In this document: one piece after another, positions 1-20,077 of the stretch
How positions within the stretch are numbered: the stretch's first letter is position 1
How the letters are laid out: each line of letters begins with the position of its first letter
Assembly: GCA_038279365.1 (NCBI GenBank)
Contig: JAYODI010000005.1
Location: forward strand, 98,457-138,578
Origin: Candidatus Latescibacterota bacterium
GTDB taxonomy: Bacteria; Latescibacterota; UBA2968
Length of the DNA: 40,122 nt
Direction: 5' to 3'
Notes under the pieces: generated by a model
Databases searched by the model: none
Seen by the model: only the letters and a program-made list of their open reading frames with translations
What the model was told of the DNA's origin: nothing
Position numbers and translations under genes: made by a program

Positions 1-609
1 TTGCGCGAACCACCCGCCGCATTGACATTGGCCCGGCTCAAATATGACGGTGGCGGCGATTGGTATAATGGCCCCACTGAAATACCCAACCTCTTGGCCT
101 TTATTGCCAAACACATACCCATTCAAACGGCCAAAGAAGAGGCACAAGTTGAAATATCCGACAACAACTTATTTGCCTATCCTGTGCTGTTTCTAACAGG
201 GCATGGCAACATTCTTTTTTCCGATGAAGAAGTTCGGCGGTTGCGTTTGTATTTAGAGCGTGGCGGATTTCTTTTTGCCAATGACGACTACGGCCTCGAC
301 AAAGCCTTTCGTCGCGAAATCAAACGCGTCTTTCCCGACAAAGAATGGGTAGAATTGCCCCCATCAGCAGAGTTATTTCAAACACCGTTTCACTTTCCGC
401 AAGGTTTGCCCAAAATACATGAGCACGATGGAGATCCCCCACAAGCCTTAGGTATTTTCCACGAAAAACGTTTGGTTATTTTTTATAATTACAGCAGTGA
501 CATTGCCGACGGATGGGATGACCCAGAAGTACATGGTGACCCACCAGACAAAAGAGAGCAAGCACTCAAAATGGGCACCAACGTCATTGTCTGGGCATTA
601 ACACAGTAA
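1..609 (+). CDS. DUF4159-family protein (5' end probably outside the window)
   Basis: Motifs LKYDGGGDWY, LFLTGHG, LRLYLERGGFLFANDDYG and ALKMGTN; frame is open from base 1; sits in a MoxR neighbourhood. Confidence 0.8.
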   Translation: MREPPAALTLARLKYDGGGDWYNGPTEIPNLLAFIAKHIPIQTAKEEAQVEISDNNLFAYPVLFLTGHGNILFSDEEVRRLRLYLERGGFLFANDDYGLDKAFRREIKRVFPDKEWVELPPSAELFQTPFHFPQGLPKIHEHDGDPPQALGIFHEKRLVIFYNYSSDIADGWDDPEVHGDPPDKREQALKMGTNVIVWALTQ

Positions 610-681
610 TCCAAATACATCATTCACTTCTATGACATTGTCCTGACACCCTATTTTTTGCTTTCATATACCCAAACAACC

Positions 682-3600
682 ATGTCACAAAACCCTTACC
701 AAACCATCGTTCAACGCATTGATCATGTGCGCACAAATCTCATACGCAACAATGTGCTTTTTGGCATGGTTCTTTCGTGTGCTTGGGCACTGGGTGTGGG
801 CTGGTTTTTGGTGGTCGTTGAGGCCTCTCTCTATTTATCCCCTACAACCAAAGTCATTCTCGAATCGCTTTTGTTTTTCAGCACTTTTTATGTGCTTATG
901 CGTTATGCCATTCTTCCGCTCTTATCACCCATCAGCCCAGAAACAATCGCCCTCCAGCTCGAAAAACATTTTGGCGGCCTGCACCAGCAACTCATCAGTG
1001 CCTTGCAATTGGGGGCCGAAAAAGATCACACAAACCAATCCCAAGCACTTATACAAGCTGCCATCAAACAGACCCAAGAACAAACGGCCCATCTCAATTT
1101 TACAGAAATCATCAACCGCAGAAAAACACAACAAGCAGCCCTTGTCTTTGTGGGCCTAGCACTTATTTGCATATTGAGCCATGCCTTGTGGCCAACCACC
1201 GTAACCGAAGCCACCCACCGTTTGTTTCAACCCCTCACGGCATTTGAGCGCCCATCAGAAACACACATTGCCTTGCGCCCAGGTGATGCAGAAATTGTAG
1301 CAGGTGATGCATTTGAAATCAGTGCCCAACTTTCGGGCATTGTTCCCCACAAGGCCCGCCTCTTGATTAGGGAAAACGAAACACAAGATTGGGCACCCAT
1401 CACCTTGACAGTGAGGCAAAAAACCACCAAATACACATTTCCAAGTGTCACCCGATCTTTCTCTTATTACCTCGTCGCACACGATGCCAAAACACGCCCT
1501 TTTACACTTTTGGTCAGACAAAGACCATTGGTCACACACGTGCGCCATCACGATACATTTCCAGCATATACCCAACTGCCCATAAGACAAAACCAAGAAG
1601 GTGGAGACATTGTGGTGCCCGTTGGCACAAAAGTCTCTTTGCACATAGAAACCAACCATGCCTTAGACAAAGCATGGTTGGTCATGGACAATGATCAACA
1701 GATTCCTGCACACGTATCAAACAACCAAGCCCAAGTCAACCTCACCATAGACAAAGACGCACGATATACCATTCAATTACAAGACCCACACATGGTTCGC
1801 AACCGCGAACCCGTTGTCTATCGCATTGTCGCCTTGCCCGATCGAGCACCCGATGTACGCCTTTTAGAACCCGGCAATGCCGAATTGGGTGAAGCCATGC
1901 AACTTGCTGTATCAGCCGAAGCCTTTGACGATTATGGCATCACCAAAATGGAAATACGCTATCAACTCAATGAACAAAAAACAGACCAAATTAAACCACT
2001 CGTGTTGACCCAACGCGCAAAAGAAACCACCGCCCAGAGCAATTGGAATTTAACCTCTTTAGATCTCTTACCCGGAGACTATATCACCTATCGCATACGT
2101 GCCTACGACAACAATCCATCACCCAACTTTGGTGAAACACAAATATTTACCATTCGATTTCCAAGCCTCTTCGAAATCCATCAGGCCACGGAAAAAGCAC
2201 AACAAGAAAGCCTCGATGAAATGAGCGATGTGCAATCGCGCAGTCAAGAACTGACCAAAGAACTCGAAACCATTTCTCGAGAATTGCTCAACGATGACAC
2301 GCTCGAATGGAAAGACAAACAACAATTAGAAGAAGCCCTTCAAACACAAGAAAAAATGAACAACCAAATGCAAAACACCGCAGAGCAACTAGCCCAAACA
2401 CTGGAAAAACTCGAAGAAAGCGGTCTTTTAAAAGACGAAACCTTACAAAAATTAGAAGAGTTGCAGGAATTACTCGACCAAATTCAATCGCCAGCCCTGC
2501 AAGAAGCCATGGAAAAATTACAAGATGCTATGCAATCTGCCAATTCTGAATTGGTGCGCGAAGCCCTTGAAGAATTCAAAAACGAACGTGAAAAATTTCA
2601 AGAATCCATTGATCGTAGCATTGCTTTGCTCAAACGTGTGCAACAACAACAAACCTTGGATGCCCTCACCAAAAAACTCGAAGCACTCACACAGTCACAA
2701 GAAAAAATAACTGAAGACATTCAAAAAGACATATCGCCCGATGCCTTGTCCAAACGCCAAGAACAAATCACCAGCGACACCGAAAAATTGCAAGACGAAT
2801 TGCAACAGTCGGCTGAGAAATTCTCCAAATCAACACCAACGGATCAACAGTTGGAGCAACTCGCACAAACCATGCAAGAAAAACAACTCACAAAACGCAT
2901 GGACCAAGTGCAAGAAAACTTAGCGGCCAATCAAAAATCACAAGCGCAAAACAAAAGTGAAAAACTCGCACAAGACTTACAACAAATGGCACAGCAAATG
3001 AATCAGGTGCGACAACAATTTTCGAACCAACAAAAAGCCGAAGTTGCCCAAGAGCTCAATCGGGCATTACACGATCTTTTAACCCTTTCTAGATCACAAG
3101 AACAAACCGCACAGCGTGCCGAAACAACACAATCGCGCGAACAAACCGCACCCTTGGCCTTAGATCAAGCACGCACCATTACGGGTGCAACCCGCATGGC
3201 ACAACGCCTGTCCGACGTATCCAAAAAGACCCTCTTTTTACCCCCTCAAGCCGGTGCGGCATTGGGCGATGCACTGCAAAAAATGGAAGACGCTGCAGGC
3301 CACCTCAACAGTGGCAACTCAAATCGCGCCGCCCAAGATGCACGCCATGCAATGCAATCTCTCAATGGTGCTGCCATGATGGTGCAACGTGCATTGGGGC
3401 GCATTTCATCATCAGAATCGGGCACAGGCTTTGAAGAAATGATGCAACAAATGGCACAACTTTCACAACAACAAGGTGATCTCAATGCTCAAACAGAAGA
3501 CATGTTTGGCAAGCCTCAACCCGGACAAGGCCAACCCGGTGGCTTGGAACAGTTGGCCGCTCAACAACGTGCCATTCAGCAAGCCTTAGAGGAGTTGCGC

Positions 3601-4002
3601 CAAGAATTGGCTCGCCAACAACAGCAAATGTTGGGTGATTTGGGCAAGGTTGCCTCCGACATGGAGCAAACCGCAAAAGAACTCCAACAACGCCATCTCA
3701 CACCCGAAACACTCAACCGCCAACAACAAATCTTATCGCGTATGCTCGATGCCCAAAAATCTATGCGTCAACGGGGTAAGAGCCGAGAACGAGAAGCAGA
3801 AAGTGGCAAAGATATGGCATATCGTGGCCCAGGTTCTTTACCTGCCAACTTAGGTGAAAGCAATAATCCACTGCGTCAATATCTGCGCGATGCACTCAAA
3901 GAAGGTTATCCCACCGAATATCAGAGCCTCATTCGCAGCTACTTTGAATCACTTATGGAAGATGCCCCCAAACAAAATAACAAACCACAGTTGCAAAATT
4001 GA
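682..4002 (+). CDS. DUF4175-like large membrane-anchored coiled-coil protein
   Basis: Three N-terminal hydrophobic segments, beta-rich middle (PDRAPDV, AFDDYGI, YRIRAYDNN), long Q/E-rich coiled coil, C-terminal YPTEYQSLIRSYF; ATG at 682 preferred to TTG at 658. Confidence 0.7.
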   Translation: MSQNPYQTIVQRIDHVRTNLIRNNVLFGMVLSCAWALGVGWFLVVVEASLYLSPTTKVILESLLFFSTFYVLMRYAILPLLSPISPETIALQLEKHFGGLHQQLISALQLGAEKDHTNQSQALIQAAIKQTQEQTAHLNFTEIINRRKTQQAALVFVGLALICILSHALWPTTVTEATHRLFQPLTAFERPSETHIALRPGDAEIVAGDAFEISAQLSGIVPHKARLLIRENETQDWAPITLTVRQKTTKYTFPSVTRSFSYYLVAHDAKTRPFTLLVRQRPLVTHVRHHDTFPAYTQLPIRQNQEGGDIVVPVGTKVSLHIETNHALDKAWLVMDNDQQIPAHVSNNQAQVNLTIDKDARYTIQLQDPHMVRNREPVVYRIVALPDRAPDVRLLEPGNAELGEAMQLAVSAEAFDDYGITKMEIRYQLNEQKTDQIKPLVLTQRAKETTAQSNWNLTSLDLLPGDYITYRIRAYDNNPSPNFGETQIFTIRFPSLFEIHQATEKAQQESLDEMSDVQSRSQELTKELETISRELLNDDTLEWKDKQQLEEALQTQEKMNNQMQNTAEQLAQTLEKLEESGLLKDETLQKLEELQELLDQIQSPALQEAMEKLQDAMQSANSELVREALEEFKNEREKFQESIDRSIALLKRVQQQQTLDALTKKLEALTQSQEKITEDIQKDISPDALSKRQEQITSDTEKLQDELQQSAEKFSKSTPTDQQLEQLAQTMQEKQLTKRMDQVQENLAANQKSQAQNKSEKLAQDLQQMAQQMNQVRQQFSNQQKAEVAQELNRALHDLLTLSRSQEQTAQRAETTQSREQTAPLALDQARTITGATRMAQRLSDVSKKTLFLPPQAGAALGDALQKMEDAAGHLNSGNSNRAAQDARHAMQSLNGAAMMVQRALGRISSSESGTGFEEMMQQMAQLSQQQGDLNAQTEDMFGKPQPGQGQPGGLEQLAAQQRAIQQALEELRQELARQQQQMLGDLGKVASDMEQTAKELQQRHLTPETLNRQQQILSRMLDAQKSMRQRGKSREREAESGKDMAYRGPGSLPANLGESNNPLRQYLRDALKEGYPTEYQSLIRSYFESLMEDAPKQNNKPQLQN

Positions 4003-4069
4003 TGTCTCTCAAAACCCTCAGAGATATCCATTTTAAAAAAACTGTATCCGTGTTTGAAAGCTGTTATTT

Positions 4070-5869
4070 ATGAAACTACTCATCGCATTTTTGTGCTTAT
4101 TCACATCGCTTGGTGCACAAACCATACCCGTTAATCAACTCCAAGCAGAAATACAAAAAGGGCTTTCTTTTGAAGCGCGCAATGATTTGGACCAAGCCTT
4201 GCACATTTATCAAAAGATCTATGCCCAATACCCCTCCCGAGGGGATATTGCCATGCGCATCGAAAGCATCTATTCACGTATTGGCCAATACGACAAAGCA
4301 GTTGCCCTACTTACCCAACACCTCAAACAATCGCCAAATGACATCACCATACATCTCAAATTGGGCGATGCGTTGTTTGCTCTGGGCAAAAAGCCCGAAG
4401 CATTTGCCCAATGGAACGGTCTGCTTAAAAATGCCACAAGCCCCAATATCTTTGCCACTGTGGCCGACCGATATCGCAAAAACAGCATTTACGATCAGGC
4501 AGAAGCCATTTACCGCCAATCCCGTACAGCACTCAATATGCCCGAGCTCTTTGCACAAGAGTTGGCCGAGTTGGCCGAGCGTCAAGCCCATTATGCCACA
4601 GCCGTTCGAGAATACATCATTTTTATACGTCAAAAACCGCAATATCGGACCATGATTGAAGCGCGTTTGCGCGACATGGCACAAAATGATGAGCAACGTC
4701 CAGAAATTTTCGGTTTGCTCTCAAATGAAGTACTCAAAGAGCCCAACAATCACAACAACTTGAGCTTGCTCATGGAATATGCCCTACCTGCTGGTTTTTC
4801 AGCTCAAATACTCCCAATATTACAAAACACAGCCCACTTACCCGCCAATAGCTGGACATATCTTCCACGCATTGCCCGATATGCATTAGAAGAAAAGAAG
4901 TTCGAAATCGCGGCACAGGCCTACCAAACCCTCTACAACCGCATAGAACAACCCGATGTGCGTGCCCGTGCGTTGCTGGGTTTGGCACAAACCAAACAAA
5001 CAGCCCAAGACATTGGGCAAGCACGCCAATATTATCAAGCTGTTGTCGATCAGTTCCCGTCACGCCCAGAAGCCGATGAAGCACGTTTTCGTTTGGGTAT
5101 TTTCCAACGCGATACCGATCAAAATCTCAAAGATGCCCAACAAACCTTTATCGAACTCATCAATACCAACCGACAAAATGAATGGCGATACCACGCTTTT
5201 TTTGAATTGGCAGATGGTTATTTACAAACCGATCAATTTGAAAATGCCGCAAAAACCTGGACCACCATTCTTTCCGAACGAAAAATAGGTCCCGAAGCAG
5301 CACGCGCCCGTTATGCCATTGCCGAATTACATTATTACACCGGAGATTTTGATGCGGCCAAGGTCATGCTCAATCTCATATTGGTAAAAGACTTGGAACA
5401 AAATGTTGCCAACGATGCCATTATGAAATTGGCCCTCATAGAAGAGAGTGAACAAAAGGATATCGATCATTTACGAAAATATGCACAAGCAGAATGTTTA
5501 CATCGCCAGCAAAAATTAAAAGAAGCACAAACAACGCTTGAAAAACTCATCCAACAATATCCCAAAACGTTTTTGGCAGACCGCATTTTATATCGGCAAG
5601 CCGAATTACTCGAACAACAAAAACAATACACACAAGCCATACAACAATACAGAAAACTCGTTTTAACCCAAAAAGACAGTCCATTGTGCCCCGCCTCCCA
5701 AATGGCACTGGCACAAATTTATGAAATCCGCCTCAGCCAATATCACGAAGCCAAAAGTGCTTACGAAACACTCTTAGTGACTTATCCACTCAGCTTCGAA
5801 GCCGACCTGGCACGTGATCGCCTTCGCATTCTGCAACAGAAAATTCAAACCCCAAAGGAAACAGGATGA
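4070..5869 (+). CDS. Exported tetratricopeptide-repeat protein
   Basis: Signal peptide MKLLIAFLCLFTSLGA; repeated helical units of the A..Y...(Y/F)P type. Confidence 0.8.
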   Translation: MKLLIAFLCLFTSLGAQTIPVNQLQAEIQKGLSFEARNDLDQALHIYQKIYAQYPSRGDIAMRIESIYSRIGQYDKAVALLTQHLKQSPNDITIHLKLGDALFALGKKPEAFAQWNGLLKNATSPNIFATVADRYRKNSIYDQAEAIYRQSRTALNMPELFAQELAELAERQAHYATAVREYIIFIRQKPQYRTMIEARLRDMAQNDEQRPEIFGLLSNEVLKEPNNHNNLSLLMEYALPAGFSAQILPILQNTAHLPANSWTYLPRIARYALEEKKFEIAAQAYQTLYNRIEQPDVRARALLGLAQTKQTAQDIGQARQYYQAVVDQFPSRPEADEARFRLGIFQRDTDQNLKDAQQTFIELINTNRQNEWRYHAFFELADGYLQTDQFENAAKTWTTILSERKIGPEAARARYAIAELHYYTGDFDAAKVMLNLILVKDLEQNVANDAIMKLALIEESEQKDIDHLRKYAQAECLHRQQKLKEAQTTLEKLIQQYPKTFLADRILYRQAELLEQQKQYTQAIQQYRKLVLTQKDSPLCPASQMALAQIYEIRLSQYHEAKSAYETLLVTYPLSFEADLARDRLRILQQKIQTPKETG

Positions 5870-7137
5870 AATCTATTCGATTCATCATGACCACACTCTT
5901 GTGTCTGGGGTGCTTGACACAAAACGCCCGCGCAGACAAACTGCTCATTGCGATGGATCTTTCTCAAAGTGATCATCTCAAAGCTTATGGCATCGCATTT
6001 TGGGCCCTCCAACAAGGCCAACCTGTCGAATGGTTGCTCAACTATAGAGGGGGGTCATTTCTCATCGATGCAACAGAAGCGCTCATATTGGAAACACGTG
6101 TACGTGCCGTCTCTTTTGAGCAAATATCCGAATCCCAAGCAACACGCATTTATGCACAAATAGAATCAGAAAACATGAACCGCATGCGCCTTGAAAAAGC
6201 GCCAAAGATAGCGGTTTATACCCCACCCAGCAAACAACCCTGGGATGATGCCGTTACGTTGGCCCTCACCTATGCCGAAATTCCCTATGATACGTTATGG
6301 GATGAAGAGGTATTAGAAGGTAAGCTTGAAGATTACGATTGGCTCCATCTGCATCATGAAGACTTTACGGGTCAATATGGCAAATTTTACAAAAGCCACG
6401 GCAACCAACCTTGGTATCGACAACAACAAGTTCACTTTGAGGCCCTTGCAAAAAAATTAGGGTTTTCCAAAGTTTCGCAACTCAAACGCGCGGTTACCGA
6501 AACCATTGCCAGTTATGTCAATGACGGTGGTTTTTTATTTGCGATGTGCTCGGCCACAGACACCTTTGACATTGCCTTGGCCGCATATAAAACCGACATA
6601 GTTGACACCATTTACGATGGTGACCCCATTGCGCCCAACGCACAACAAGCATTGGACTTTTCGCGCACATTGGCTTTTGAAAACTTTAACATTGTACTCG
6701 ACCCCATGGAATATGAATATTCAGACATAGACATCTCACCCACAGAAATGCGGCAAATACGCAATGCCCAATCCGATGCTTTTACACTTTTTGACTTTTC
6801 AGCCAAATACGACCCTGTGCCCACCATGCTCACACAAAGTCACACTCCTATCGTGCCAGGATTTTTGGGACAAACGACCGCATTTAATAAAAGCAAACTC
6901 AAAAAATCAATTACTGTAATGGGCTATATTCCCAATAAAGAACACGTCAAATACATCCATGGCAACTTGGGGCAGGGCACCTTTACATTTTATGCCGGAC
7001 ACGACCCAGAAGATTACCAACACTTTGTCAACGACCCACCCACTCAACTTGCCTTACACAAAAACTCTGTGGGATATCGCCTCATATTAAACAACATTCT
7101 TTTTCCAGCAGCCAAAAAACAAAAACGCAAAACGTAA
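5866..7137 (+). CDS. Conserved exported protein, probable class I glutamine-amidotransferase-like fold (family often mislabelled 'asparagine synthetase B')
   Basis: Signal peptide; motifs HLKAYG, WLLNYRGGSF, PWDDAV, WLHLHHEDFTGQYGKF, GGFLFAMCSATD, GHDPEDYQH; ATGA overlap with the TPR gene. Confidence 0.65.
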   Translation: MKSIRFIMTTLLCLGCLTQNARADKLLIAMDLSQSDHLKAYGIAFWALQQGQPVEWLLNYRGGSFLIDATEALILETRVRAVSFEQISESQATRIYAQIESENMNRMRLEKAPKIAVYTPPSKQPWDDAVTLALTYAEIPYDTLWDEEVLEGKLEDYDWLHLHHEDFTGQYGKFYKSHGNQPWYRQQQVHFEALAKKLGFSKVSQLKRAVTETIASYVNDGGFLFAMCSATDTFDIALAAYKTDIVDTIYDGDPIAPNAQQALDFSRTLAFENFNIVLDPMEYEYSDIDISPTEMRQIRNAQSDAFTLFDFSAKYDPVPTMLTQSHTPIVPGFLGQTTAFNKSKLKKSITVMGYIPNKEHVKYIHGNLGQGTFTFYAGHDPEDYQHFVNDPPTQLALHKNSVGYRLILNNILFPAAKKQKRKT

Positions 7138-7204
7138 AAATCACTCGCATTTCTCCAAACTTTTTTTATGTTGTGACAAACACCCCATACGTTAAGGAAA
7201 AAAA

Positions 7205-8200
7205 ATGCCTCAAGAACCCACCCATGAAGACCTCGAAACCGTTCAAGAACTCAAAGATGCCTACAACCAAATTGTGGGTGAAATTGGCAAAGTCATTATT
7301 GGCCAAAAAGACATCGTCGATCAACTCCTGATCGCACTCTTGTGTGGGGGCCATGTGCTGTTGGTCGGTGTGCCAGGATTGGCCAAAACCCTGCTCATCA
7401 GCACATTGGCGCGTGCTCTTAATCTCTCGTTTAGCCGCATTCAGTTTACCCCAGACCTCATGCCATCTGACATTACGGGCACCGAAGTCATTGAAGAAGA
7501 CCACAGCACTGGCCAAAAAGCATTTCGATTTGTGAAAGGCCCTATTTTTGCCAATATTATTCTGGCCGACGAAATCAACCGCACCCCACCCAAAACACAA
7601 GCTGCACTGTTACAAGCTATGCAAGAACATGAAGTAACCACGGGTGGAGAAACCTTCGATCTCGAAGAACCCTTTTTTGTACTTGCAACCCAAAACCCCA
7701 TTGAGCAAGAAGGTACCTATCCGTTGCCCGAAGCCCAATTGGATCGTTTCATTTTTAACTTGTGGATTGATTATCCCACAGAAGAAGAAGAAAAGCAGAT
7801 CGTGAAAGCCACCACAGGTTTTCAAGCACACGATGTTCAACCCGTTTTAAGTGCCGAGCAAATTGTCAAATTGCAACAACTCATTCGCAAAGTACCTGTT
7901 TCCGATCATGTCATAGACTATGCCGTCAAACTCGTACGCAAAACACGCCCCAACAGCCCAGATGCCCCCCAAGACATCTCTCGCCTCATCAGTTGGGGAG
8001 CTGGGCCACGAGCGTCACAATGCTTGATATTGGGTGCCAAAGCACGCGCCGTACTCGAAGGCCGATATGCCGCATCCATAGACGATGTAAATTTTGTGGC
8101 CAAACCCGTCTTACGCCATCGTATGGTCACCAGCTTTAATGCCGAAGCCGAAGGCATCACCGTTGTAGACCTCATCGACAAACTGCTACAAAAGCAATGA
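7205..8200 (+). CDS. moxR: MoxR-family AAA+ ATPase
   Basis: Walker [21 protein letters not shown], Walker [40 protein letters not shown]. Confidence 0.93.
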
Positions 8201-8316
8201 AACGCCAAACATGAAACGGCAAACGTGAAACGTCAGACAAACCAAAACCACCAATTGCCCTAACGTTTCTCGCCATCTGTCGTCTGCCATTTGCCATTTG
8301 AGTTTCTCCATTCACC
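8198..8316. repeat. Two inverted tracts of degenerate 7-bp tandem repeats
   Basis: tgaaacg-ccaaaca-tgaaacg-gcaaacg-tgaaacg-tcagaca (8198-8239), then complementary-type units cgtttct, catctgt, cgtctgc, catttgc, catttga (8264-8301). Confidence 0.75.
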
Positions 8317-8328
8317 CTTAGGATTTCT

Positions 8329-9351
8329 ATGTCAAATCCCATTCTCGAAATAGAAGATTTGCACGTTAGTTTTCGCACCATCGATGGCCTTGTCACAGCA
8401 GTCAATGGCGTCGATCTCACCTTACACCGAGGTGAAACGGTGGGCCTGGTGGGAGAGTCTGGCTCGGGCAAAAGCGTTACAGCCATGAGCATCATGCGTT
8501 TATTGGCCGAACCACCTGCGCAAATAACGGGCAGCATTCGCCTACAAGACAAAAAAGGCGAGCTCATCAATATCACCGATCTCAACCCAGACAGCCCTAA
8601 GATGCAAAACTTGCGGGGCAATGATGTGGCCATGATCTTTCAAGAACCGATGCGCGCGCTCTCACCCGTTTTTACAGTAGGTCATCAAGTGGCCGAAGCC
8701 ATTTGGTTGCATCGCACCGTAAGCAAAGACGAAGCCCTCAAAGAAGCCATTCATATGCTCGACCGAGTGGGCATTCCAGACCCAGATCGCAGAGCACGCG
8801 AATACCCCCACCAACTTTCAGGAGGGCAAAGACAACGCGTCATGATTGCCATGGCATTGGCCTGTCGCCCGGCCTTGCTTATTGCCGATGAACCTACAAC
8901 GGCCTTAGATGTCACCATTCAAGCCCAAATCATGGAATTGCTCAACGAACTCCAATCCGAGTTTAACATTGCCATTTTGCTCATCACCCACGACTTGGGC
9001 ATTGTGGCAGGTACTTGTTCACGCGTTAATGTTATGTATATGGGGCGCGTGGTCGAACAGGCCGATATCTACACCGCATTCGAAAATCCTGCTCACCCTT
9101 ACACGCAGGGTTTGCTCAAAAGTGTGCCCGTACCTGGGCAAGATCACAAAGAACGACTACCCGCCATTCGAGGCGCGGTTCCCGACCCCAAAAATTTGCC
9201 CGCAGGATGCGCCTTTGGCCCTCGGTGTGACCACTTTCAACCCGGTCTGTGTGATCAAGAAGGGGATGTAGCCCTCGTTCAAGTAACACCCAATCATCAG
9301 GCACGGTGTTATCGCACTGCCGAAGTACAGACTTTGCCTTCAACGGTTTAA
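8329..9351 (+). CDS. Oligopeptide/dipeptide ABC transporter ATP-binding subunit (OppD/DppD type)
   Basis: [43 protein letters not shown] and C-terminal Cys cluster (GCAFGPRC...C...C). Confidence 0.92.
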
Positions 9352-9372
9352 CACTTAAACAAAACAAGTCAT

Positions 9373-10386
9373 ATGATCACGCGCCGACACTTTTTACAAA
9401 ACAGCCTGTTCACACTGGGCACATTGGCATTGGCCCCATCTATCTGGGCGCAAAAAAACCCACAAGTGATGACCGTTACAGGTTCCATGAGTTTGGGAGA
9501 AATGGGATTTACCTTGCCACACGAGCACATCATGTCTCTTTTTGGTGGCCCCATTGCCCAACATGCCGAATATGACCAAAAAAAATTATTTGATGTTGTA
9601 ATTCCCTACCTTAAAAAACTCAAGGCATTGGGGCTGAGCACACTTTGTGAATGTACCACGGCCTATTTTGGCCGACGTGCAGACTTGCTTAAAACCATCT
9701 CATTGGAAACGGGCATCCACATCCTCACAAATACAGGATATTACGGTGCTGCCAATGACCGTTATGTGCCCGATCATGCCAAAACAACCTCTGTTGACCA
9801 ACTCACCAAACAATGGCTTTCAGAATGGGAAGATGGCATTGAAAACACAGGCATTCGCCCAGGTTTTATCAAAATAGGTGTAGACAATGGCAAACTGTCT
9901 GAAACAGATGCCAAATTGATTCGCGCCGCTGCCCAAACACATTTACACAGCGGTCTGGTCATTGCCGCACACACCAGTGGCAGCATAGAAGCCGCCTTTG
10001 ATCAGTTGCAAATATTGAAGGAGGAAAACGTGCATCCATCGGCATGGATTTGGGTGCATGCCAACAATGTCAAAGACAATGATGCCCTCCTGCGCGCTGC
10101 CCAAACAGGTGCTTGGATAGAATTGGACGGCGTTCGAGAAGACACACATGACCAGCATCTGGCACAAATTGCCCTTTTAAAAAAACACGGGCACATCAAC
10201 CAAGTATTGCTCTCACACGATGGCAATTCGTTTCGATATGGCAACCGCCCTTTTAAACCTTACGAATATATTTTGACCCATTTTGTCCCCCATCTCAAAG
10301 AATTGGGATACACCAGCAAAGAAATCATACAACTCACCATTGCCAACCCACGCAAAGCATTTGGTATTGCAGTTCGAAAAGCTTAA
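9373..10386 (+). CDS. Phosphotriesterase-family amidohydrolase with twin-arginine signal
   Basis: TRRHFL Tat motif; metal ligands HEH, GFIK (carboxylated Lys), AAHT, WVHA, SHD. Confidence 0.85.
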   Translation: MITRRHFLQNSLFTLGTLALAPSIWAQKNPQVMTVTGSMSLGEMGFTLPHEHIMSLFGGPIAQHAEYDQKKLFDVVIPYLKKLKALGLSTLCECTTAYFGRRADLLKTISLETGIHILTNTGYYGAANDRYVPDHAKTTSVDQLTKQWLSEWEDGIENTGIRPGFIKIGVDNGKLSETDAKLIRAAAQTHLHSGLVIAAHTSGSIEAAFDQLQILKEENVHPSAWIWVHANNVKDNDALLRAAQTGAWIELDGVREDTHDQHLAQIALLKKHGHINQVLLSHDGNSFRYGNRPFKPYEYILTHFVPHLKELGYTSKEIIQLTIANPRKAFGIAVRKA

Positions 10387-10406
10387 CAAACGACACCTGA
10401 CCAATC

Positions 10407-10444
10407 AAAACGGATGACAACCTTTCGCTGTCATCCGTTTTTTT
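10407..10444 (+). terminator. Rho-independent terminator
   Basis: aaaacggatgaca / tgtcatccgtttt inverted repeat followed by a T-run, ~20 nt after the stop. Confidence 0.85.
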
Positions 10445-10521
10445 GTATGTTTCTACTCCAACAAATAAAATAATGATACATTTTAAACACGCACTCACTT
10501 TCCAACATCTTTAAAAACACC

Positions 10522-13666
<3,145 letters not shown>

Positions 13667-13678
13667 AAGGAGGGTGTG

Positions 13679-13987
13679 ATGGCCGAACCGATCTCTGACC
13701 AAGTGGGTTCCAAATTGCTTTTTGAAAATGACCGTGTACGCGTTTGGGACCTCACCCTTGCCCCCGGAGAAAGTACAGGGATGCACCGCCACGAACACGA
13801 TTACCTCTATGTGGTCATTGGCGATGGCGCACTACAAGGTGTTTCATCTGACGGTATAAAAGGTGCCCCCCGTCTCATGAAAGATGGTGATGTAAGATGG
13901 AACACCGTAAATGGCGAAGCCATTCACGCGGCAATAAATGCCGGTGACAAACCTTGGCGCAATATCATCGTCGAATTAAAAAAGTAA
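13679..13987 (+). CDS. Small cupin-domain protein
   Basis: LLFENDRVRVW, LAPGE..MHRH, H.A.N..RNIIVELK; SD AGGAGG at 13668-13673 favours ATG 13679. Confidence 0.8.
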   Translation: MAEPISDQVGSKLLFENDRVRVWDLTLAPGESTGMHRHEHDYLYVVIGDGALQGVSSDGIKGAPRLMKDGDVRWNTVNGEAIHAAINAGDKPWRNIIVELKK

Positions 13988-14013
13988 AATCTTTTTGACA
14001 GAGCACTCTTTTC

Positions 14014-14043
14014 TTGACGAACCCCTCACTCTACTGTTAAATT
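14014..14043 (+). promoter_or_regulatory. Sigma70-type promoter of the polyamine operon
   Basis: TTGACG (14014-14019), 18 nt, extended -10 TGnTAAATT (14035-14043). Confidence 0.55.
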
Positions 14044-14061
14044 AAACGTTTCAAATTCTCG

Positions 14062-14230
14062 CTGCGCCTTTTGTTTGCAAAAAGGCAGATGCCCTTTGCC
14101 ATGTTGATAGACAACATGCAAACCAACATCGCCTTTTAAAATGTAAATATTGTTTTATAGGCGCCATATCTCATTTTCAACATGGTCTGTTTTAAGCTGG
14201 TGTGGATGCCCGACCAGTATCCATAGGAGA
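14062..14230 (+). ncRNA. Candidate cis-regulatory leader RNA (riboswitch/attenuator-like), family not recognised
   Basis: Long hairpin 14080-14137, alternative pairings with 14066-14072 and 14159-14163, and a second copy of the core motif (14201-14225) abutting the SD. Confidence 0.5.
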
Positions 14231-14236
14231 CGTTCT

Positions 14237-14779
14237 ATGTACGTTGCATCAAAGATGTTCTTGACCCGTGGTGTTGGAAGACACAAAGAAAAATTGGTCA
14301 GTTTTGAAATGGCCCTTCGCGAAGCAGGCATTGCCGCGTTTAATATTGTAACGGTGTCGAGCATCTTTCCTCCAAATTGTGAAATCATACCCGTTTCAGA
14401 AGGGCTTAAAGAGTTGTCCGAAGGCCAAATTGTGCATGCGGTTGTGGCAAAAGAAGCCACCAATGAACACAGTCGCTTAGCTGCCGCCTCCATCGGTGTG
14501 GCAATCCCCCGCGACCGCAACAAATTTGGCTTCCTGTCAGAGCATCACTCTTTTGGCGAAGAAGAATTAGATGCAGGAAACTATGCCGAAGACCTTGCAG
14601 CACAAATGCTCGCAACCATTTTGGGGTTGGAGTTTGATGCCACAACAAATTACGACGAACGCAGAGAAGTCTATCAACTCAGCGAACAAATTGTCGAATC
14701 TATGCAAATTACACAAACCGCAGAAGGCATTGGTGGCCAATGGACCACCGTGCTGGCCGCAGCGATCCTTTTGCCTTAA
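14237..14779 (+). CDS. pdaD: Pyruvoyl-dependent arginine decarboxylase
   Basis: SFEMALREAGIAAFNIVTVSSIFPP with the Ser-Ser self-cleavage site; FLSEHH; SD AGGAG at 14225-14229 before ATG 14237. Confidence 0.9.
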   Translation: MYVASKMFLTRGVGRHKEKLVSFEMALREAGIAAFNIVTVSSIFPPNCEIIPVSEGLKELSEGQIVHAVVAKEATNEHSRLAAASIGVAIPRDRNKFGFLSEHHSFGEEELDAGNYAEDLAAQMLATILGLEFDATTNYDERREVYQLSEQIVESMQITQTAEGIGGQWTTVLAAAILLP

Positions 14780-14791
14780 TAAACGGTGCTC

Positions 14792-15880
14792 ATGAACACA
14801 ACCTCCAGAAATCAACGTATCTTACCACGCCCCATTACCTCATCGACCACACTCATTGAACTGGTCGATGAGGCTCTTCTTGCCTACAATGGTGCCCGTT
14901 TGCGCGAAGCCTGTCACTTGCTTGTGCGCAAAATGCTCGCCCCCGATGTCACTGTGGGGCTCTCGCTTACGGGCGCCCTTACACCTGCGGGCCTTGGTAT
15001 GTCAGCATTGTTACCCTTAATCCGTGCAGGTTTTGTAGACTGGATCGTGAGTACGGGTGCCAACCTCTATCACGACACCCACTTTGCTTTGGGCTTAGAG
15101 TTGCGCTCAGGCTCTCCAAACATAGATGATCGGGCCTTACGAGAACAACAAGTGGTGCGCATTTACGACATCTTATTTGATTACGATGTCCTCCTGCAAA
15201 CCGATGCTTTCTTTCGAGAAGTGATTGCCGCAGATGAATTTCAAACCACCATGTCTACAGCCGAGTTCCACTACCGCATAGGGCGCTATGTTCGCCAACG
15301 CGAGCTTGCACTCGGCAGCAGTCAGGTGAGCATACTCGGCGCAGCCTATGAGGCCGGTGTGCCCATTTACACATCTTCGCCTGGTGACAGTTCCATTGGC
15401 ATGAATGTGGCTCGTCATGCCCTTGAGGGCGGCCAATTGCGTTTGGATGTGGCCCTCGATGTCAATGAAACTGCGGCCATTGTTCTCGATGCCAAACGCA
15501 AAGGGCGCAGTGCCGTATGGATTCTCGGTGGTGGCTCACCCAAAAACTTCATTTTACAAACAGAACCACAAATTCAAGAAGTACTCGGCATTGACGAACG
15601 CGGCCACGACTATTTTATGCAAATTACCGATGCACGCCCAGACACCGGCGGCTTGTCTGGCGCAACGCCATCAGAGGCCGTAACTTGGGGCAAAGTAGAT
15701 CCCGATCAGTTGCCCAATGCCATTACCTGTTACACAGACAGCACCATTGCCCTCCCCATTATGACGGCCTATGCACTACAAAGCCATGCACCCCGTCCAT
15801 TGCGTCGTCTATATGACCACCGCGCCGAAATGATGGAACACCTCAAAACAACTTTCCAAGCGTCTCAGGCATCGCAATGA
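14792..15880 (+). CDS. Deoxyhypusine-synthase-like protein (probable homospermidine biosynthesis enzyme, SpeY-like)
   Basis: [44 protein letters not shown] with the catalytic Lys; lies between the decarboxylase and agmatinase. Confidence 0.88.
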
Positions 15881-16791
15881 ACTTCATGCAAGCCAAAGAA
15901 GGCTTTCTTGGCCTTGACGACCAATGGACACATCCAGAATTGGCCAAAGCGGTCATCTTGCCCGTGCCTTACGAACAGACCACCAGTTATGGTAGCGGAA
16001 CGGCACACGGGCCAATGGCACTCATAAACGCCTCTCATCAGGTAGAACTCTACGACGAAGAATTGGACACAGAACCCTACCAGCAATGGCAAGGGGTGGC
16101 CACAGCAGAGCCCTTACAATTGGATAACCTGCAAGATGACAACGCAATCACATATATTGCCCAACAGGCTGGAGAGCTTGTCGCCAAAAACAAATTGGTT
16201 GTAGGCTTAGGTGGCGAACACACCGTTACCGCAGGGCTCATCGCTGCCCAAGTGCAAAAAAACCCGTCCTTCACCGTACTCCAAATTGATGCCCACACCG
16301 ACCTACGCGAAAGTTATGAGGGCAACCGATGGTCGCACGCCAGCGTAATGGCAAGGGTGCGTGACCTCAACCTATCCACTGTTGCCGTGGGCATTCGCAG
16401 CCAGTGTACTGAAGAAGCCGACAAAATTCGCAGTGAACGCTTGCCCGTATGGTATGCACATGATTTGCGCATCAGAGCTTTGCAAGATGGCTGGAACAGT
16501 TGGTTTGATGAGGTCATTGCCCAATTGGGAGATACGGTTTATATCACCATTGATGTAGACGGTTTTGATCCATCCATTATTCCCGCCACAGGCACACCCG
16601 AACCCGGTGGTTTGTTGTGGCACGAGGTATTGGGTCTGTTACGTCAAGTTTGCATACAACGCCAAGTGATCGCCTTCGATGTGGTTGAACTGGCCCCAAC
16701 TTCAAGTTCTCACCACTCAGAATTTACGGCCGCCAAACTGACCTACAAAATGCTGGGTTACATCGCAACAGGAAAACAAACCTTTATTTAG
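15877..16791 (+). CDS. speB: Agmatinase (ureohydrolase)
   Basis: [29 protein letters not shown] overlap with the upstream gene. Confidence 0.9.
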
Positions 16792-16839
16792 AAATAAGAG
16801 CAACGCTTGCATAAACCAGATTTTGAAGTTGACAAACTT

Positions 16840-16883
16840 GAAATAAAAATCCCGATGGTATGAACCATCGGGATTTTTATTTC
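16840..16883. terminator. Bidirectional intrinsic terminator
   Basis: Perfect 20-bp inverted repeat gaaataaaaatcccgatggt-atga-accatcgggatttttatttc between convergent speB and amt-kinase. Confidence 0.9.
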
Positions 16884-16888
16884 TGCTG

Positions 16889-19800
16889 TCATTTCACAAC
16901 ACTTAAAACACGGTGTAATGCTTGTCCTAGTCTTTCAAGGCTTAATGGCTTTTCAAGATACCCATCGTGATCTTTTACATTGTCACGACTTGTCTCGCCA
17001 ATAGGATAACCAGTCATCAGCAAAACGGGCAACTCGGGTCGTTTTTGTTTGATCGCCTTCAACAATTCTATGCCATTCATTTCTGGCATCACAACATCTG
17101 TTAAAATAGCATCAATATCGGCATGATATTTTTCATACTGCCCCAAAGCATCCTGCCCATTAAATGCCGGAATGATACGATAATTAAGTTGTCGCAACAT
17201 CCCTTCTGTTGCCTGTCGCACCGAAAAATCATCTTCAACCAACAAAACGGTCTCACCTTGTCCTTTTGGCGCTTCACCCACTTGTTCGGTATTTTTGACA
17301 TTCTTATCTTCTGAATCTGGCAAATAAATATAAAACGTTGTGCCTTGTCCTATTCCCGTTTCAATATCAATAAAACCATTGTGCTGCTTAACAATACCAT
17401 AAACTTGGGCCATTCCCAAACCCGTACCTTTTCCAACATCCTTGGTCGTAAAAAAAGGTTCAAAAATATGATTCAAAACATCATCTGAAATGCCAGTCCC
17501 CGTATCAGAAAGACTCACAAGTGACCATCGCCCCAAAGGCATATCTGCCAATGGTGGCTTGGTCTCATGATCAAAAACAACATATTTTAACGAAATATGA
17601 AGCTTGCCACCATCGGGCATCGCATCACGCGCATTTACAGCCAAATTGGTCAAAACCTGTTGCAATTGCGTGGGGTTTGCAACCACCACATGGTCATCAC
17701 CTTCTATATCTGAATCAATTTCTATCGACTCAGGTAAAATGCGTTGCAACAAACGTACCATCTCTTTAAAAAAGGGGATCAATGCCATCGGGTGGCGTTC
17801 TGCAACGGACTTTCGGCTAAAGTCCAAAATTTGCCTCACAAGCTGCGCGGCCCGATCGCCTTGAGAATAGATACGCTGCAGAATTTCTTTTGCCGGCTCA
17901 GGCATATCTGACCGCAATTCCAAAAGCTGCGCAAAACCATTAATTCCGGTCAACAAATTATTAAAATCATGTGCAATGCCTGCCGCCAATTGCCCCACAG
18001 CAGCCAAACGATCTTGTTGTTGTGCACGCTCTTGCATATCGCGCTCGGCTGTTACATTGCGAATAATAACAACCCACCCACCCCCTCTAATATGCTCAGT
18101 TAAAGCGCGACCATAAATTTCAAATGTATATGTTTCTTCCGTTACCTCAACCATCACTTCTTGTAAACGATGGCCAGATTGTCCCATCAATATATCTACC
18201 AAAGCCCGATCACCAATCCATTCCAAACGCTCACCAATATCGACCAAACATCCCAGTACATTTAAACATGTACGCCCCTCTTGATTAACCATCATCAATT
18301 CCAAATGTTCACTCAACAAACACACACCATCGGGTTGGTGTTCAATCATACTTCGCAAACGCGCTTCGCTGTTACGCAACTGTTCTTCTGCGTGTTTGCG
18401 CTCCGTAATATCGCGAAATGTGCTGGTATAGAACAATTCACCACCAGCTTCTACTTCGGTCACAACAACCTCTACAGGAAACCGTGAACCATCTATCCGT
18501 TTTCCAATAATTTCTTCTACACTCAACGCATCATCATTGACCAACCGAATAAAAGTTTGTCGATCTTCATCACGCGATAAAAATGTCGTAATGGGCATAC
18601 CAATCAAACTTCCCCCTGGTCCTTGAAACATCATTTCTGCACTGGGGTTTGCCGAAATAACAGCCATAGAATCTTTGGCAAATGTAATAATGCCATCTTT
18701 CGCAGTGCGAACAATAGCATCAATTTTCGCCACCGATTCTTCCAACGAATTCATGACCAAATTATAACGTTTGGCAATTTGTCCAATTTCCGTAAAAGGC
18801 TCAACAGGAACCCGCAAGCTCAAATCTTGTGAATGAGCCTGCAATTCCATAATATTTAACAAATCTAAAATCTCTGTCGTTGCCTTGTGTTCAACCACAT
18901 TTAAACCCAATTGTTCATCCTCACTTGATACGCGCAGAGGATAAATACGATTGATCACTTTAAACAAAAAATAAGTTGAAAGAAAAGACCATATAAAACA
19001 CACCAACACACCCAAACCTTGTACACCTAATTGTGTCAGACGGTCTAAACCCGTGTCGAGCATTTCCAAATTGCCAAAAAACCCTACCGCCAAAGTCCCC
19101 CAAATACCAGCCCCCAAATGTACGGGCACAGCCCCCACTGCATCGTCTATGCCAAATCTTTCTAAGAGCTTTGTTGAAACTGCCATAACAACAGCTCCTA
19201 TCGCACCAATAATCACAGCCTCGGGTGTATCTACAACATGGCAATTTGCAGTAATTGCCACCAACCCTGCCAAAGCACCGTTCATGGCCAAATCGACAAC
19301 CGAATAATCATAAAAAAATTGGCCAATCATAAGCCCCATACACAACCCTGCACCACCGGCAATCATCGTATTAAATACAATACCAGGCACTTTATCGTTC
19401 ATGGCCAACGTGCTGCCACCATTAAACCCAATCCACCCAAACCAAATCAGCAGCATACCCAACAAAGCCAAAGGCACATAACTGCCAGGTATTGTTTTGG
19501 GTGCTTCTCCCTTAACAAATCGCCCCAAACGTGGACCAATAATCAACAAAACGGCCAATGCTGCCCCACCTCCCACACTATGCACAACCGAAGATCCTGC
19601 AAAATCAACAAAACCCAATGCGCCCAACCACCCCGAGTCGCCCACATAAGCGCCTCCCCAAGCCCAATGCCCAAACATGGGGTAAATAAAAGCTGAAACC
19701 ACTATTGAAATCAAAAAATAAGCATTAAAACGCAACCGTTCGGCAACCGCCCCCGAAATGATGGTCACTGCCGTACCACAAAACATCACTTGAAACAAAA

Positions 19801-20077
19801 AAAATGTGGCCAACCACGATGTTTCAGCATACACAGACACAAAAAAGTGGTCGGTGCCAAACCAACCACTTTGCGAAGTACCAAACATGATCGCAAATCC
19901 AAACGCCCAAAACAGCAACATCGACAAACCAAAATCAGCAATATTTTTAAGTGCCACATTGATAGAGTTTTTGGTTCGGGTAAGCCCTGCCTCCAAGCAC
20001 AAAAAACCCGCTTGCATCATAAACACCAAGCCACAGCTTACCAAAACCCACAAAATATCTATTTGGCTTTTCACCAT
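16889..20077 (-). CDS. Ammonium transporter (Amt) fused to HAMP-like, two PAS, histidine kinase and receiver domains
   Basis: Amt: FMMQAGF..LEAG, FQVMF, HWAW, DFAGSSVVH, WFGWIGFNGGS, DDAVGAVPVH; kinase: GIAHDFNNLL, NLAVNARDAM, DTGTG, FEPFFTTK, GTGLG; receiver: VEDD, TDVVMP, EKP. Confidence 0.92.
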   Translation of the reverse strand: MVKSQIDILWVLVSCGLVFMMQAGFLCLEAGLTRTKNSINVALKNIADFGLSMLLFWAFGFAIMFGTSQSGWFGTDHFFVSVYAETSWLATFFLFQVMFCGTAVTIISGAVAERLRFNAYFLISIVVSAFIYPMFGHWAWGGAYVGDSGWLGALGFVDFAGSSVVHSVGGGAALAVLLIIGPRLGRFVKGEAPKTIPGSYVPLALLGMLLIWFGWIGFNGGSTLAMNDKVPGIVFNTMIAGGAGLCMGLMIGQFFYDYSVVDLAMNGALAGLVAITANCHVVDTPEAVIIGAIGAVVMAVSTKLLERFGIDDAVGAVPVHLGAGIWGTLAVGFFGNLEMLDTGLDRLTQLGVQGLGVLVCFIWSFLSTYFLFKVINRIYPLRVSSEDEQLGLNVVEHKATTEILDLLNIMELQAHSQDLSLRVPVEPFTEIGQIAKRYNLVMNSLEESVAKIDAIVRTAKDGIITFAKDSMAVISANPSAEMMFQGPGGSLIGMPITTFLSRDEDRQTFIRLVNDDALSVEEIIGKRIDGSRFPVEVVVTEVEAGGELFYTSTFRDITERKHAEEQLRNSEARLRSMIEHQPDGVCLLSEHLELMMVNQEGRTCLNVLGCLVDIGERLEWIGDRALVDILMGQSGHRLQEVMVEVTEETYTFEIYGRALTEHIRGGGWVVIIRNVTAERDMQERAQQQDRLAAVGQLAAGIAHDFNNLLTGINGFAQLLELRSDMPEPAKEILQRIYSQGDRAAQLVRQILDFSRKSVAERHPMALIPFFKEMVRLLQRILPESIEIDSDIEGDDHVVVANPTQLQQVLTNLAVNARDAMPDGGKLHISLKYVVFDHETKPPLADMPLGRWSLVSLSDTGTGISDDVLNHIFEPFFTTKDVGKGTGLGMAQVYGIVKQHNGFIDIETGIGQGTTFYIYLPDSEDKNVKNTEQVGEAPKGQGETVLLVEDDFSVRQATEGMLRQLNYRIIPAFNGQDALGQYEKYHADIDAILTDVVMPEMNGIELLKAIKQKRPELPVLLMTGYPIGETSRDNVKDHDGYLEKPLSLERLGQALHRVLSVVK

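Follow-up and report, generated by a model that had tools for sequence, protein, structure and literature searches.

A conserved, strongly folded leader of a predicted homospermidine operon, restricted to one bacterial lineage, may control translation of pdaD

What does the long spacer in front of pdaD, the first gene of a polyamine operon in a Latescibacterota bacterium, contribute to the expression of that operon? The window analyzed here (the whole stretch of DNA, 40,122 nucleotides (nt) of contig JAYODI010000005.1 in the Candidatus Latescibacterota assembly GCA_038279365.1) carries pdaD, which encodes a pyruvoyl-dependent arginine decarboxylase. A preliminary description of this stretch had proposed a long leader between a sigma70 promoter and the decarboxylase ATG, in which two hairpins, A and B, share a tandem GATG-CCC...CCAR-YATC motif and act as an RNA switch on pdaD translation. 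We find that the stretch is a conserved, strongly folded untranslated leader of the predicted homospermidine operon and is restricted to one lineage. We tentatively favor a cis-regulatory role in which translation of pdaD would be controlled by a choice between hairpin B and a further hairpin, C, that covers the start site. The features that delimit the leader are as follows.

14014..14043, + strand: sigma70-like promoter found by a promoter scan; TTGACG (14014-19), an 18-nt spacer and TAAATT (14038-43), with TG before the -10 hexamer
14050..14236, + strand: 5' leader of the pdaD operon, about 187 nt, its 5' end inferred from the promoter
14237..14779, + strand: pdaD, pyruvoyl-dependent arginine decarboxylase (Pfam PvlArgDC, E 2.3e-55), start ATG at 14237

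Scanning genome contigs with PdaD gave 80 loci at no more than 68% protein identity, and the same scan of metagenomes gave one close relative, the locus L087 (98% protein identity), with all others at 67% or below. L087 shares with the window the upstream genes and the whole spacer. Both promoter hexamers and the TAAACG that follows them are identical in L087 and five bases of the promoter spacer differ, as would be expected of a working promoter. Within the leader, 165 of 187 aligned positions (88%) are identical, plus three inserted bases, compared with 203 of 286 four-fold sites (71%; 110/158, 33/45 and 60/83) in three flanking genes (Fisher odds ratio 3.07, p = 8.3e-6). This excess of conservation spans the whole 187 nt, beyond the promoter and the Shine-Dalgarno sequence (SD). 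Constraint and promoter pattern together argue that the intergenic spacer is functional and that the hairpins lie within a 5' untranslated region (UTR) of about 187 nt whose start is placed from the promoter, so the long leader of the preliminary description stands. The leader as a whole (14050-14245) folds at -55.1 kcal/mol (z -3.97), a stability reached by 1 of 200 shuffles.

The last third of the leader can adopt three hairpins around the SD and the start codon.

14201..14225, + strand: hairpin B (UGUGGAUG / UAUCCAUA), arms 14201-08/14218-25, its 3' end abutting the SD AGGAG (14225-29)
14196..14218, + strand: hairpin B' (GCUGGU.UGG / CCGACCAGU), a rival of B; part of the minimum free energy (MFE) fold of the window and weakened in L087 by G14217A
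14222..14239, + strand: hairpin C (CAUAGGA-GACG-UUCUAUG), a predicted fold that pairs the SD with the start codon; identical in L087

Hairpin C, which had been missed in the preliminary description, joins CAUAGGA (14222-28) to UUCUAUG (14233-39) across a GACG loop. Because B and C both need CAUA (14222-25) they are mutually exclusive, and B' can coexist with C. In the ensemble of the full leader, the bases of AGGA are unpaired with a probability of 0.03-0.12 and the AUG with a probability of 0.10. When every gene was folded in a context of -60 to +20, the pdaD AUG had an unpaired probability of 0.023, which places it in the lowest 4.1% of 1131 SD-bearing long open reading frames (ORFs) of its own genome; the value for the SD, 0.31, is unremarkable (29th percentile of the 1131 genes). 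The start codon is thus paired more than in typical genes, and this unusual occlusion makes control of pdaD translation plausible. In the window, B' with C is predicted at -16.7 kcal/mol, compared with -13.0 kcal/mol when B is enforced; in L087, B is predicted at -11.3 kcal/mol, compared with -9.3 kcal/mol when C is enforced. In both sequences, therefore, the two states are separated by 2-4 kcal/mol. Near-degenerate alternative folds are common in RNA, and a hairpin that sequesters the SD or start codon, together with a competing hairpin, is the generic platform of translational riboswitches, RNA thermometers and leaders controlled by proteins or small RNAs (sRNAs). All four differences from L087 within hairpin B keep or strengthen its pairing (G.U to A-U, G.U to G-C, and C14210/G14217 to U/A), a post hoc observation on one relative. 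The last of these, C14210T with G14217A, is a C-G to U-A exchange that adds one pair to hairpin B; it looks compensatory, which suggests that these bases pair rather than contact a ligand. By these folding models, the 3' end of the leader is a plausible two-state platform for translational control.

The first two-thirds of the leader form a separate and more stable structure.

14064..14164, + strand: long rod in the window MFE fold; outer stem GCGCCU/AGGCGC, second tier 14072-79/14142-49, then hairpin A
14080..14137, + strand: hairpin A, 22 base pairs (bp) in four helices, with a 3x4 internal loop CCC/CCAA and an apical loop AUAGA
14066..14086, + strand: alternative 5' hairpin GCCUUUU/AAAAGGC, a rival of the base of hairpin A, -8.5 kcal/mol alone

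Hairpin A is built from AAAAGGC 14080-86/GCCTTTT 14131-37, GATG 14088-91/CATC 14127-30, TTTGC 14095-99/GCAAA 14118-22 and ATGTTG 14101-06/CAACAT 14112-17. It folds at -21.2 kcal/mol (z -5.58), with none of 200 shuffles as good, and the rod that contains it (14060-14168) folds at -36.5 kcal/mol (z -5.17), again with none of 200. In L087 hairpin A refolds in a shifted register at -15.8 kcal/mol (z -4.26), and the rod has a z of -2.47. Relative to the pairs of the window, hairpin A of L087 has three broken, one compensated (C14099-G14118 to U-A) and one turned into G-U; in the outer tiers four one-sided changes keep pairing and one breaks it. A 14-nt block at 14103-14116 is identical in L087, and both of its flanks differ. 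The coordinates and base pairs that had been given for hairpins A and B are all correct when read against the sequence, and so are the proposed competing pairings: GCCTTTT at 14066-72 with the base of A, CGCCT 14130-34 with AGGCG 14159-63, and CTGGT 14197-201 with ACCAG 14213-17. Forcing the 5' hairpin at 14066-14086 to form gives a fold 3.2 kcal/mol above the MFE of 14050-14200.

From these folds we propose, as a possibility rather than a firm assignment, that transcription from the sigma70-type promoter at 14014-14043 would yield a leader of about 187 nt whose 5' two-thirds would form a stable 100-nt rod with hairpin A as its core, serving as a stabilizing, pausing or processing element. Further downstream, hairpin C (14222-14239), in company with B', would pair the SD with the AUG and block initiation, and hairpin B (14201-14225) would instead capture the CAUA that C needs and leave SD and AUG free. 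The balance between B and C would then set pdaD translation. That this switching takes place in vivo, and in answer to a trigger, we infer; the balance might be shifted by a metabolite of the polyamine pathway, by general effects of polyamines or Mg on the helices, by a protein, by an sRNA or by translation of a six-codon ORF that overlaps hairpin B. Of the RNA switch proposed in the preliminary description, the structured leader behind a promoter and, as a plausible function, control of pdaD translation are retained, and the tandem CCC/CCAR motif as its basis is not.

Several observations count against translational control by the B/C choice. The leader is carried by one relative only, so its conservation is not independently replicated. 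The most stable state is predicted to be B' with C in the window but B in L087. The 3' domain, which holds hairpin B, is thermodynamically ordinary (z -2.09 with 6 of 200 shuffles as good in the window, z -0.57 in L087). Hairpin C shows no covariation because it has no substitutions, and the SD and first codons would be conserved anyway. We found no pairing that couples the rod to the 3' switch. The RNA-library contig X13, which covers 13948-14279 at a depth of 3.6 and carries T14070A, begins upstream of the promoter and may represent read-through from a preceding cupin-like gene, or DNA in the library; such contigs cannot show RNA ends. On the favorable side, X13 does cover the leader, and contigs of X13, X14 and X17 cover pdaD; the absence of X14 and X17 contigs from the leader carries no weight. 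Over 13913-14139 the X11 DNA contigs show no difference from the window, and over 14155-14397 they show one, a base in pdaD.

Covariation also fails to lend this reading statistical strength. An RNAalifold consensus of window and L087 keeps all of its 41 pairs, with seven one-sided and two double (compensatory) changes. Since such a consensus drops whatever broke, a test on the structure predicted from the window alone is fairer, and for this we re-dealt the 22 observed substitutions among bases of the same kind. The pairs broken in L087 numbered 4 against 5.4 expected in the rod (P = 0.30), 3 against 3.5 in hairpin A (P = 0.52) and 4 against 6.6 in the rod plus hairpin B (P = 0.12), each of which weighs on the same side as the points above; for the outer tiers the figures were 1 against 2.0 (P = 0.37). 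The covariation that the preliminary description had looked to for confirmation was thus not significant (P 0.12-0.52, two sequences), and with PdaD relatives at no more than 68% identity apart from L087 at 98%, there are no intermediate relatives from which to draw it. The stability of hairpin A in both sequences and the four benign changes in hairpin B suggest, rather than prove, conservation of structure in this one relative.

These same results bear on the reading that the leader has no dedicated function and is an ordinary long UTR or spacer with a chance palindrome, conserved through its promoter, its SD and the general needs of a messenger. Long spacers are the rule upstream of pdaD (median 175 nt; at least 150 nt in 92 of 148), covariation does not reach significance, the leader is limited to a single lineage and the full leader of L087 has a fold z of only -0.74. 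We nevertheless consider this reading unlikely, since hairpin A stands out at z -5.58 and -4.26 in the two sequences, conservation exceeds that of four-fold sites over all 187 nt and the start codon is occluded to the 4th percentile.

The rod raises a second alternative, that hairpin A is a leaky intrinsic terminator which acts as an attenuator of pdaD, as the terminator of the preceding bioA-bioD-methyltransferase-cupin operon, or as both, with 5' GCCUUUU/AAAAGGC as the antiterminator. Hairpin A is followed by UUUUAAAA, and its A5 and U4A4 flanks resemble those of the terminator at 16841-16882 that closes the polyamine operon. No further candidate terminator is seen from the cupin stop at 13987 to pdaD, and the competing 5' hairpin, at -8.5 kcal/mol, would be transcribed first. 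The stem is, however, 58 nt long and interrupted, unlike the clear example at 16841-16882, and only four U follow it; a scan for G+C-rich uninterrupted stems with at least five U in 8 nt called no terminator in 13500-14700. The X13 contig runs through hairpin A. The two variants in the U-run of the 5' hairpin, an inserted A in L087 and T14070A in the X13 contig, both sit in an internal loop of the rod, which favors the rod over the antiterminator. We regard termination at hairpin A as doubtful.

Short ORFs within the leader offer another route to control, and the GATGCCC of both motif copies indeed holds AUG CCC.

14089..14139, + strand: upstream ORF 1 (uORF1; MPFAMLIDNMQTNIAF, then a stop), wholly inside hairpin A and listed with a TTG start
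14206..14226, + strand: mini-ORF AUG CCC GAC CAG UAU CCA UAG (MPDQYP, then a stop), its stop overlapping the SD of pdaD; it has no convincing SD of its own

uORF1 stays open in L087, where 5 of its 16 residues differ and one change is synonymous, a pattern that gives no sign of selection on the peptide. uORF2 (14 codons, start at 14182) loses its AUG in L087. Neither of these, nor the mini-ORF, has a convincing SD or shows purifying selection between the window and L087, and none joins a conserved peptide to a usable ribosome-binding site as a regulatory leader peptide would. uORF1, uORF2 and an in-frame extension of pdaD from TTG 14150 were each rejected as coding because their peptides are not conserved, and the starts of the latter two are lost in L087. 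Positions 14097-14126, where uORF1 reads AMLIDNM, match 26 of 30 nt of the dnaB codons for GAMLIDNMAIN in a sister genus (L178-L181), and 14189-14218 match 26 of 30 nt of the antisense of the HWSGINTFLK codons in an arginase-family gene of the same sister genus; in the window's own genome the corresponding gene is truncated by the end of contig C183. Both similarities are probably due to chance: none extends past 30 nt, and three independent hits were found against about one expected.

Control by the mini-ORF would mean that ribosomes on 14206-14226 melt hairpin C and then reinitiate at the AUG 11 nt further on, or stall at the Pro-stop under the influence of a polyamine-pathway metabolite. 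The UAG of the mini-ORF overlaps the SD, its codons extend across hairpin B and the 5' arm of C, and its frame, length and M-x-D-Q-x-P-stop pattern are kept in L087 (MLDQHP, then a stop). Yet two of the six residues are replaced there, RNA pairing explains every difference equally well, its AUG lies in a stem, it lacks a convincing SD, and the other short ORFs have fared no better, with the uORF2 start lost and uORF1 much altered. We keep it, as an improbable minor rival, because uORF-based polyamine control is documented for speFL and mdtU in the text of PMC7815308 that concerns them.

A private, lineage-specific sensor of the agmatine/homospermidine pathway would be a long shot. It would take the form either of a riboswitch built on the internal loops of the rod or of a six-codon uORF whose metabolite-dependent stalling is coupled to pdaD initiation. 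Eukaryotic AdoMetDC is controlled by a hexapeptide uORF, and the uORF form, if true, would be its bacterial counterpart.

Very improbable is the reading from which this work set out, a new riboswitch or protein-binding RNA whose two tandem hairpins would bind a polyamine, agmatine or arginine through their unpaired CCC and CCAR bases. The leader is long, structured and constrained, stands before biosynthetic genes without an Rfam match and has alternative pairings within 3.2 kcal/mol of the MFE; spermidine riboswitches over polyamine genes are known, as the riboswitch passages of PMC10853860 describe. Against it stands first the fate of the motif in L087, where copy A reads GATG-CCC...CCCA-CATT and copy B reads GATG-CTC-GA-CCAA-CATC, so that neither of the two fits GATGCCC-N-CCARYATC. 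The 14 supposedly unpaired motif bases changed at 3 positions compared with 19 of 173 in the rest of the leader (p = 0.22), and are thus no more conserved than their surroundings, as the bases of a binding site would be. The conserved unpaired CCC/CCAR bases of the preliminary description are accordingly given up.

Nor does the motif recur. Its occurrence upstream of homologous operons had been named beforehand as one of the checks. In a survey of 156 pdaD upstream sequences with a minimum length of 200 nt, the copy in the window matched and 0 of the 155 others did; L004 and L005 (opposite orientation) and 8 loci with less than 200 nt upstream were set aside in this survey. Partial matches were limited to L087, with one half in each copy, and to L064 and L164, with GATGCCC alone. 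The exact pattern has 10 matches in the 6.03-Mb genome when both strands are counted, and the 8 outside the leader all fall within open frames of 335-969 amino acids (aa). We also counted a generalized form of this resemblance: any 7-mer that occurs twice, each time with its first 4 nt able to pair in a 4-bp stem, and with the 3 nt that precede the 3' arm of that stem the same in both copies. Such a coincidence appeared in 258 of 20000 dinucleotide shuffles of the leader (1.3%) and in 1630 of 40000 random 187-nt windows of the genome (4.1%). At 1-4% per 187 nt, several are expected in the 40-kb window, and from these counts the repeated GATGCCC...CCA.ATC likeness of A and B is most likely coincidence.

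Family searches gave the same picture. With Rfam 15 (4227 models) there were no matches at gathering score in the whole window, and at E up to 10 the region 13950-14300 gave only SscA (18.4 bits against 60, minus strand) and a nematode snoRNA, both at chance level; the absence of a named riboswitch class, noted in the preliminary description, is thereby confirmed. An nhmmer profile of the two leaders found nothing in 166 loci or the own genome beyond the window copy (L001) and L087, and blastn-short over the same loci and genome added no other copy. A covariance model of the leader (R1; 199 positions, 41 pairs) found only itself in the own genome and only L087 beyond the window among 165 loci, and its two hits in 150 relatives (E 0.55 and 0.71) were treated as chance. 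BLAST against 168 genomes of the phylum returned matches of 20-30 nt only. In these searches the leader did not recur upstream of related genes in several lineages, as a riboswitch would, and it is not a dispersed repeat of the REP or MITE kind, being present in one copy in the 6.03-Mb assembly by blastn, nhmmer and covariance model. From these sequence comparisons the leader appears private to one lineage. The window MFE fold, moreover, is an unbranched rod whose internal loops are small; it forms neither a multi-stem junction nor a pseudoknot.

The nearest PdaD lineages (63-67% identity, Nitrospirota or Thermodesulfovibrionales) have a conserved block of their own about 250 nt upstream of pdaD (L008-L010 and L090-L097; also L007, L011, L013, L014 and L088). 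The block resembles a promoter (TTGCATTGAAA...TTCTGTAATAAA); downstream of it comes a leader of about 100-130 nt in which a GGGAAGGGTTTCCC hairpin immediately precedes the SD. This block is unrelated in sequence to the leader of the window.

Least probable is a DNA-level operator at the apical palindrome GTTG-ATAGA-CAAC (14103-14115), where a dimeric repressor would act as a roadblock about 55-65 bp downstream of the transcription start: the identity of 14103-14116 in L087 amid changed flanks fits it, but it leaves the 58-nt extent of the palindrome and the A- and U-run flanks unexplained, and the Pfam annotation of the window places no regulator gene next to the operon.

What the favored B/C control would act on can be read from the genes around the leader.

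10522-11889, + strand: class-III aminotransferase (bioA of the upstream operon)
11886-12596, + strand: BioD-like P-loop protein
12593-13666, + strand: RlmKL-like methyltransferase
13676-13987, + strand: small cupin-like ORF, 103 aa; Cupin_2 below the Pfam cut-off (24.0 against 27.2 bits)
14786..15880, + strand: deoxyhypusine-synthase homologue, SpeY-like (Pfam DS, E 2.5e-71)
15877..16791, + strand: arginase-family ureohydrolase, agmatinase-like (Pfam Arginase, E 1.4e-60)
16841..16882, no strand assigned: bidirectional terminator closing the operon, read from the sequence; A-run, perfect 10-bp stem 16850-59/16864-73, ATGA loop, U-run

The genes of the plus strand that precede pdaD are tightly packed, and 249 nt separate the cupin-like ORF from pdaD. 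This ORF is conserved in L087, with codon positions 1 and 2 being 96% and 93% identical. The perfect terminator at 16841-16882 was not listed by a terminator scan of 1-20000. Convergent to the polyamine operon lies a 1062-aa fusion of Amt (ammonium transporter), PAS, HisKA, HATPase and receiver domains (16889-20077, minus strand). Over the window (1-40122), GC skew is negative in 19 of 20 2-kb bins and 0.000 in one (-0.33 to 0.00), and AT skew is mostly positive, many genes on the plus strand notwithstanding.

The gene trio corresponds to the agmatine/SpeY route to homospermidine, in which, according to PMC13625781, SpeY joins two agmatines into N1,N9-bis(guanidino)homospermidine and a dedicated ureohydrolase converts this to homospermidine. 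By domain content, the operon of pdaD, the SpeY-like gene and the ureohydrolase is thus predicted to make homospermidine from arginine via agmatine. PdaD is patchy among relatives: it was found in 6 of 61 related genomes (the window's own included) but in 0 of 30 from the same family, among them two of the same genus that are 88-90% complete. The SpeY homologue occurs in the same genomes as PdaD, with one additional DS hit of 30% identity in the family, and the closest PdaD matches, none above 68% identity, come from other phyla. That neither gene was found in the genus and family genomes searched, apart from this DS hit, together with nearest relatives in other phyla, suggests that the polyamine operon was acquired horizontally.

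The regulation of this recently defined route is undescribed, and the only validated polyamine riboswitch that we found in the literature is a variant of SAM-I. A constrained, strongly folded leader and an occluded start make this operon a reasonable place to seek post-transcriptional feedback. The leader is limited to a single uncultured lineage, estuarine or marine, and we offer it as a modest lead and not as a discovery.

How does the leader compare with known systems? The literature searched yielded nothing on pdaD leaders, and no paper that names both pyruvoyl-dependent arginine decarboxylase and an untranslated region. The speF leader is an Rfam entry; with it and other orphan Rfam leaders the window shares a structured element before a polyamine decarboxylase gene, and no Rfam model was matched at gathering score by the window's leader. 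Natural spermidine riboswitches control polyamine genes and are, in the account of their architecture in PMC10853860 (Salvail et al. 2023), a SAM-I variant with a four-stem junction that drives a terminator. The position before polyamine biosynthesis genes and the expected off switch are common to both, whereas the leader described here is a rod with no U-rich terminator called and no SAM-clan Rfam hit at E up to 10, so it lacks the junction and terminator that mark membership of that class. In Escherichia coli, polyamine genes are under post-transcriptional control through the oppA 5' UTR and the speFL and mdtU uORFs, according to the sections of PMC7815308 on these genes, which gives the control favored here a precedent. 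There too a long 5' UTR carries short ORFs that overlap structure over a downstream ribosome-binding site, but sequence similarity is absent and the peptides of the uORFs in this leader are not kept between window and L087. To generic translational leaders the likeness is one of principle only, and the leader shows neither a recognizable sensor domain nor family-level conservation; what is shared is the 7-bp hairpin AGGA/UCUAUG over the start site, an exclusive upstream hairpin that uses four of the same nucleotides, and two states within 2-4 kcal/mol of each other.

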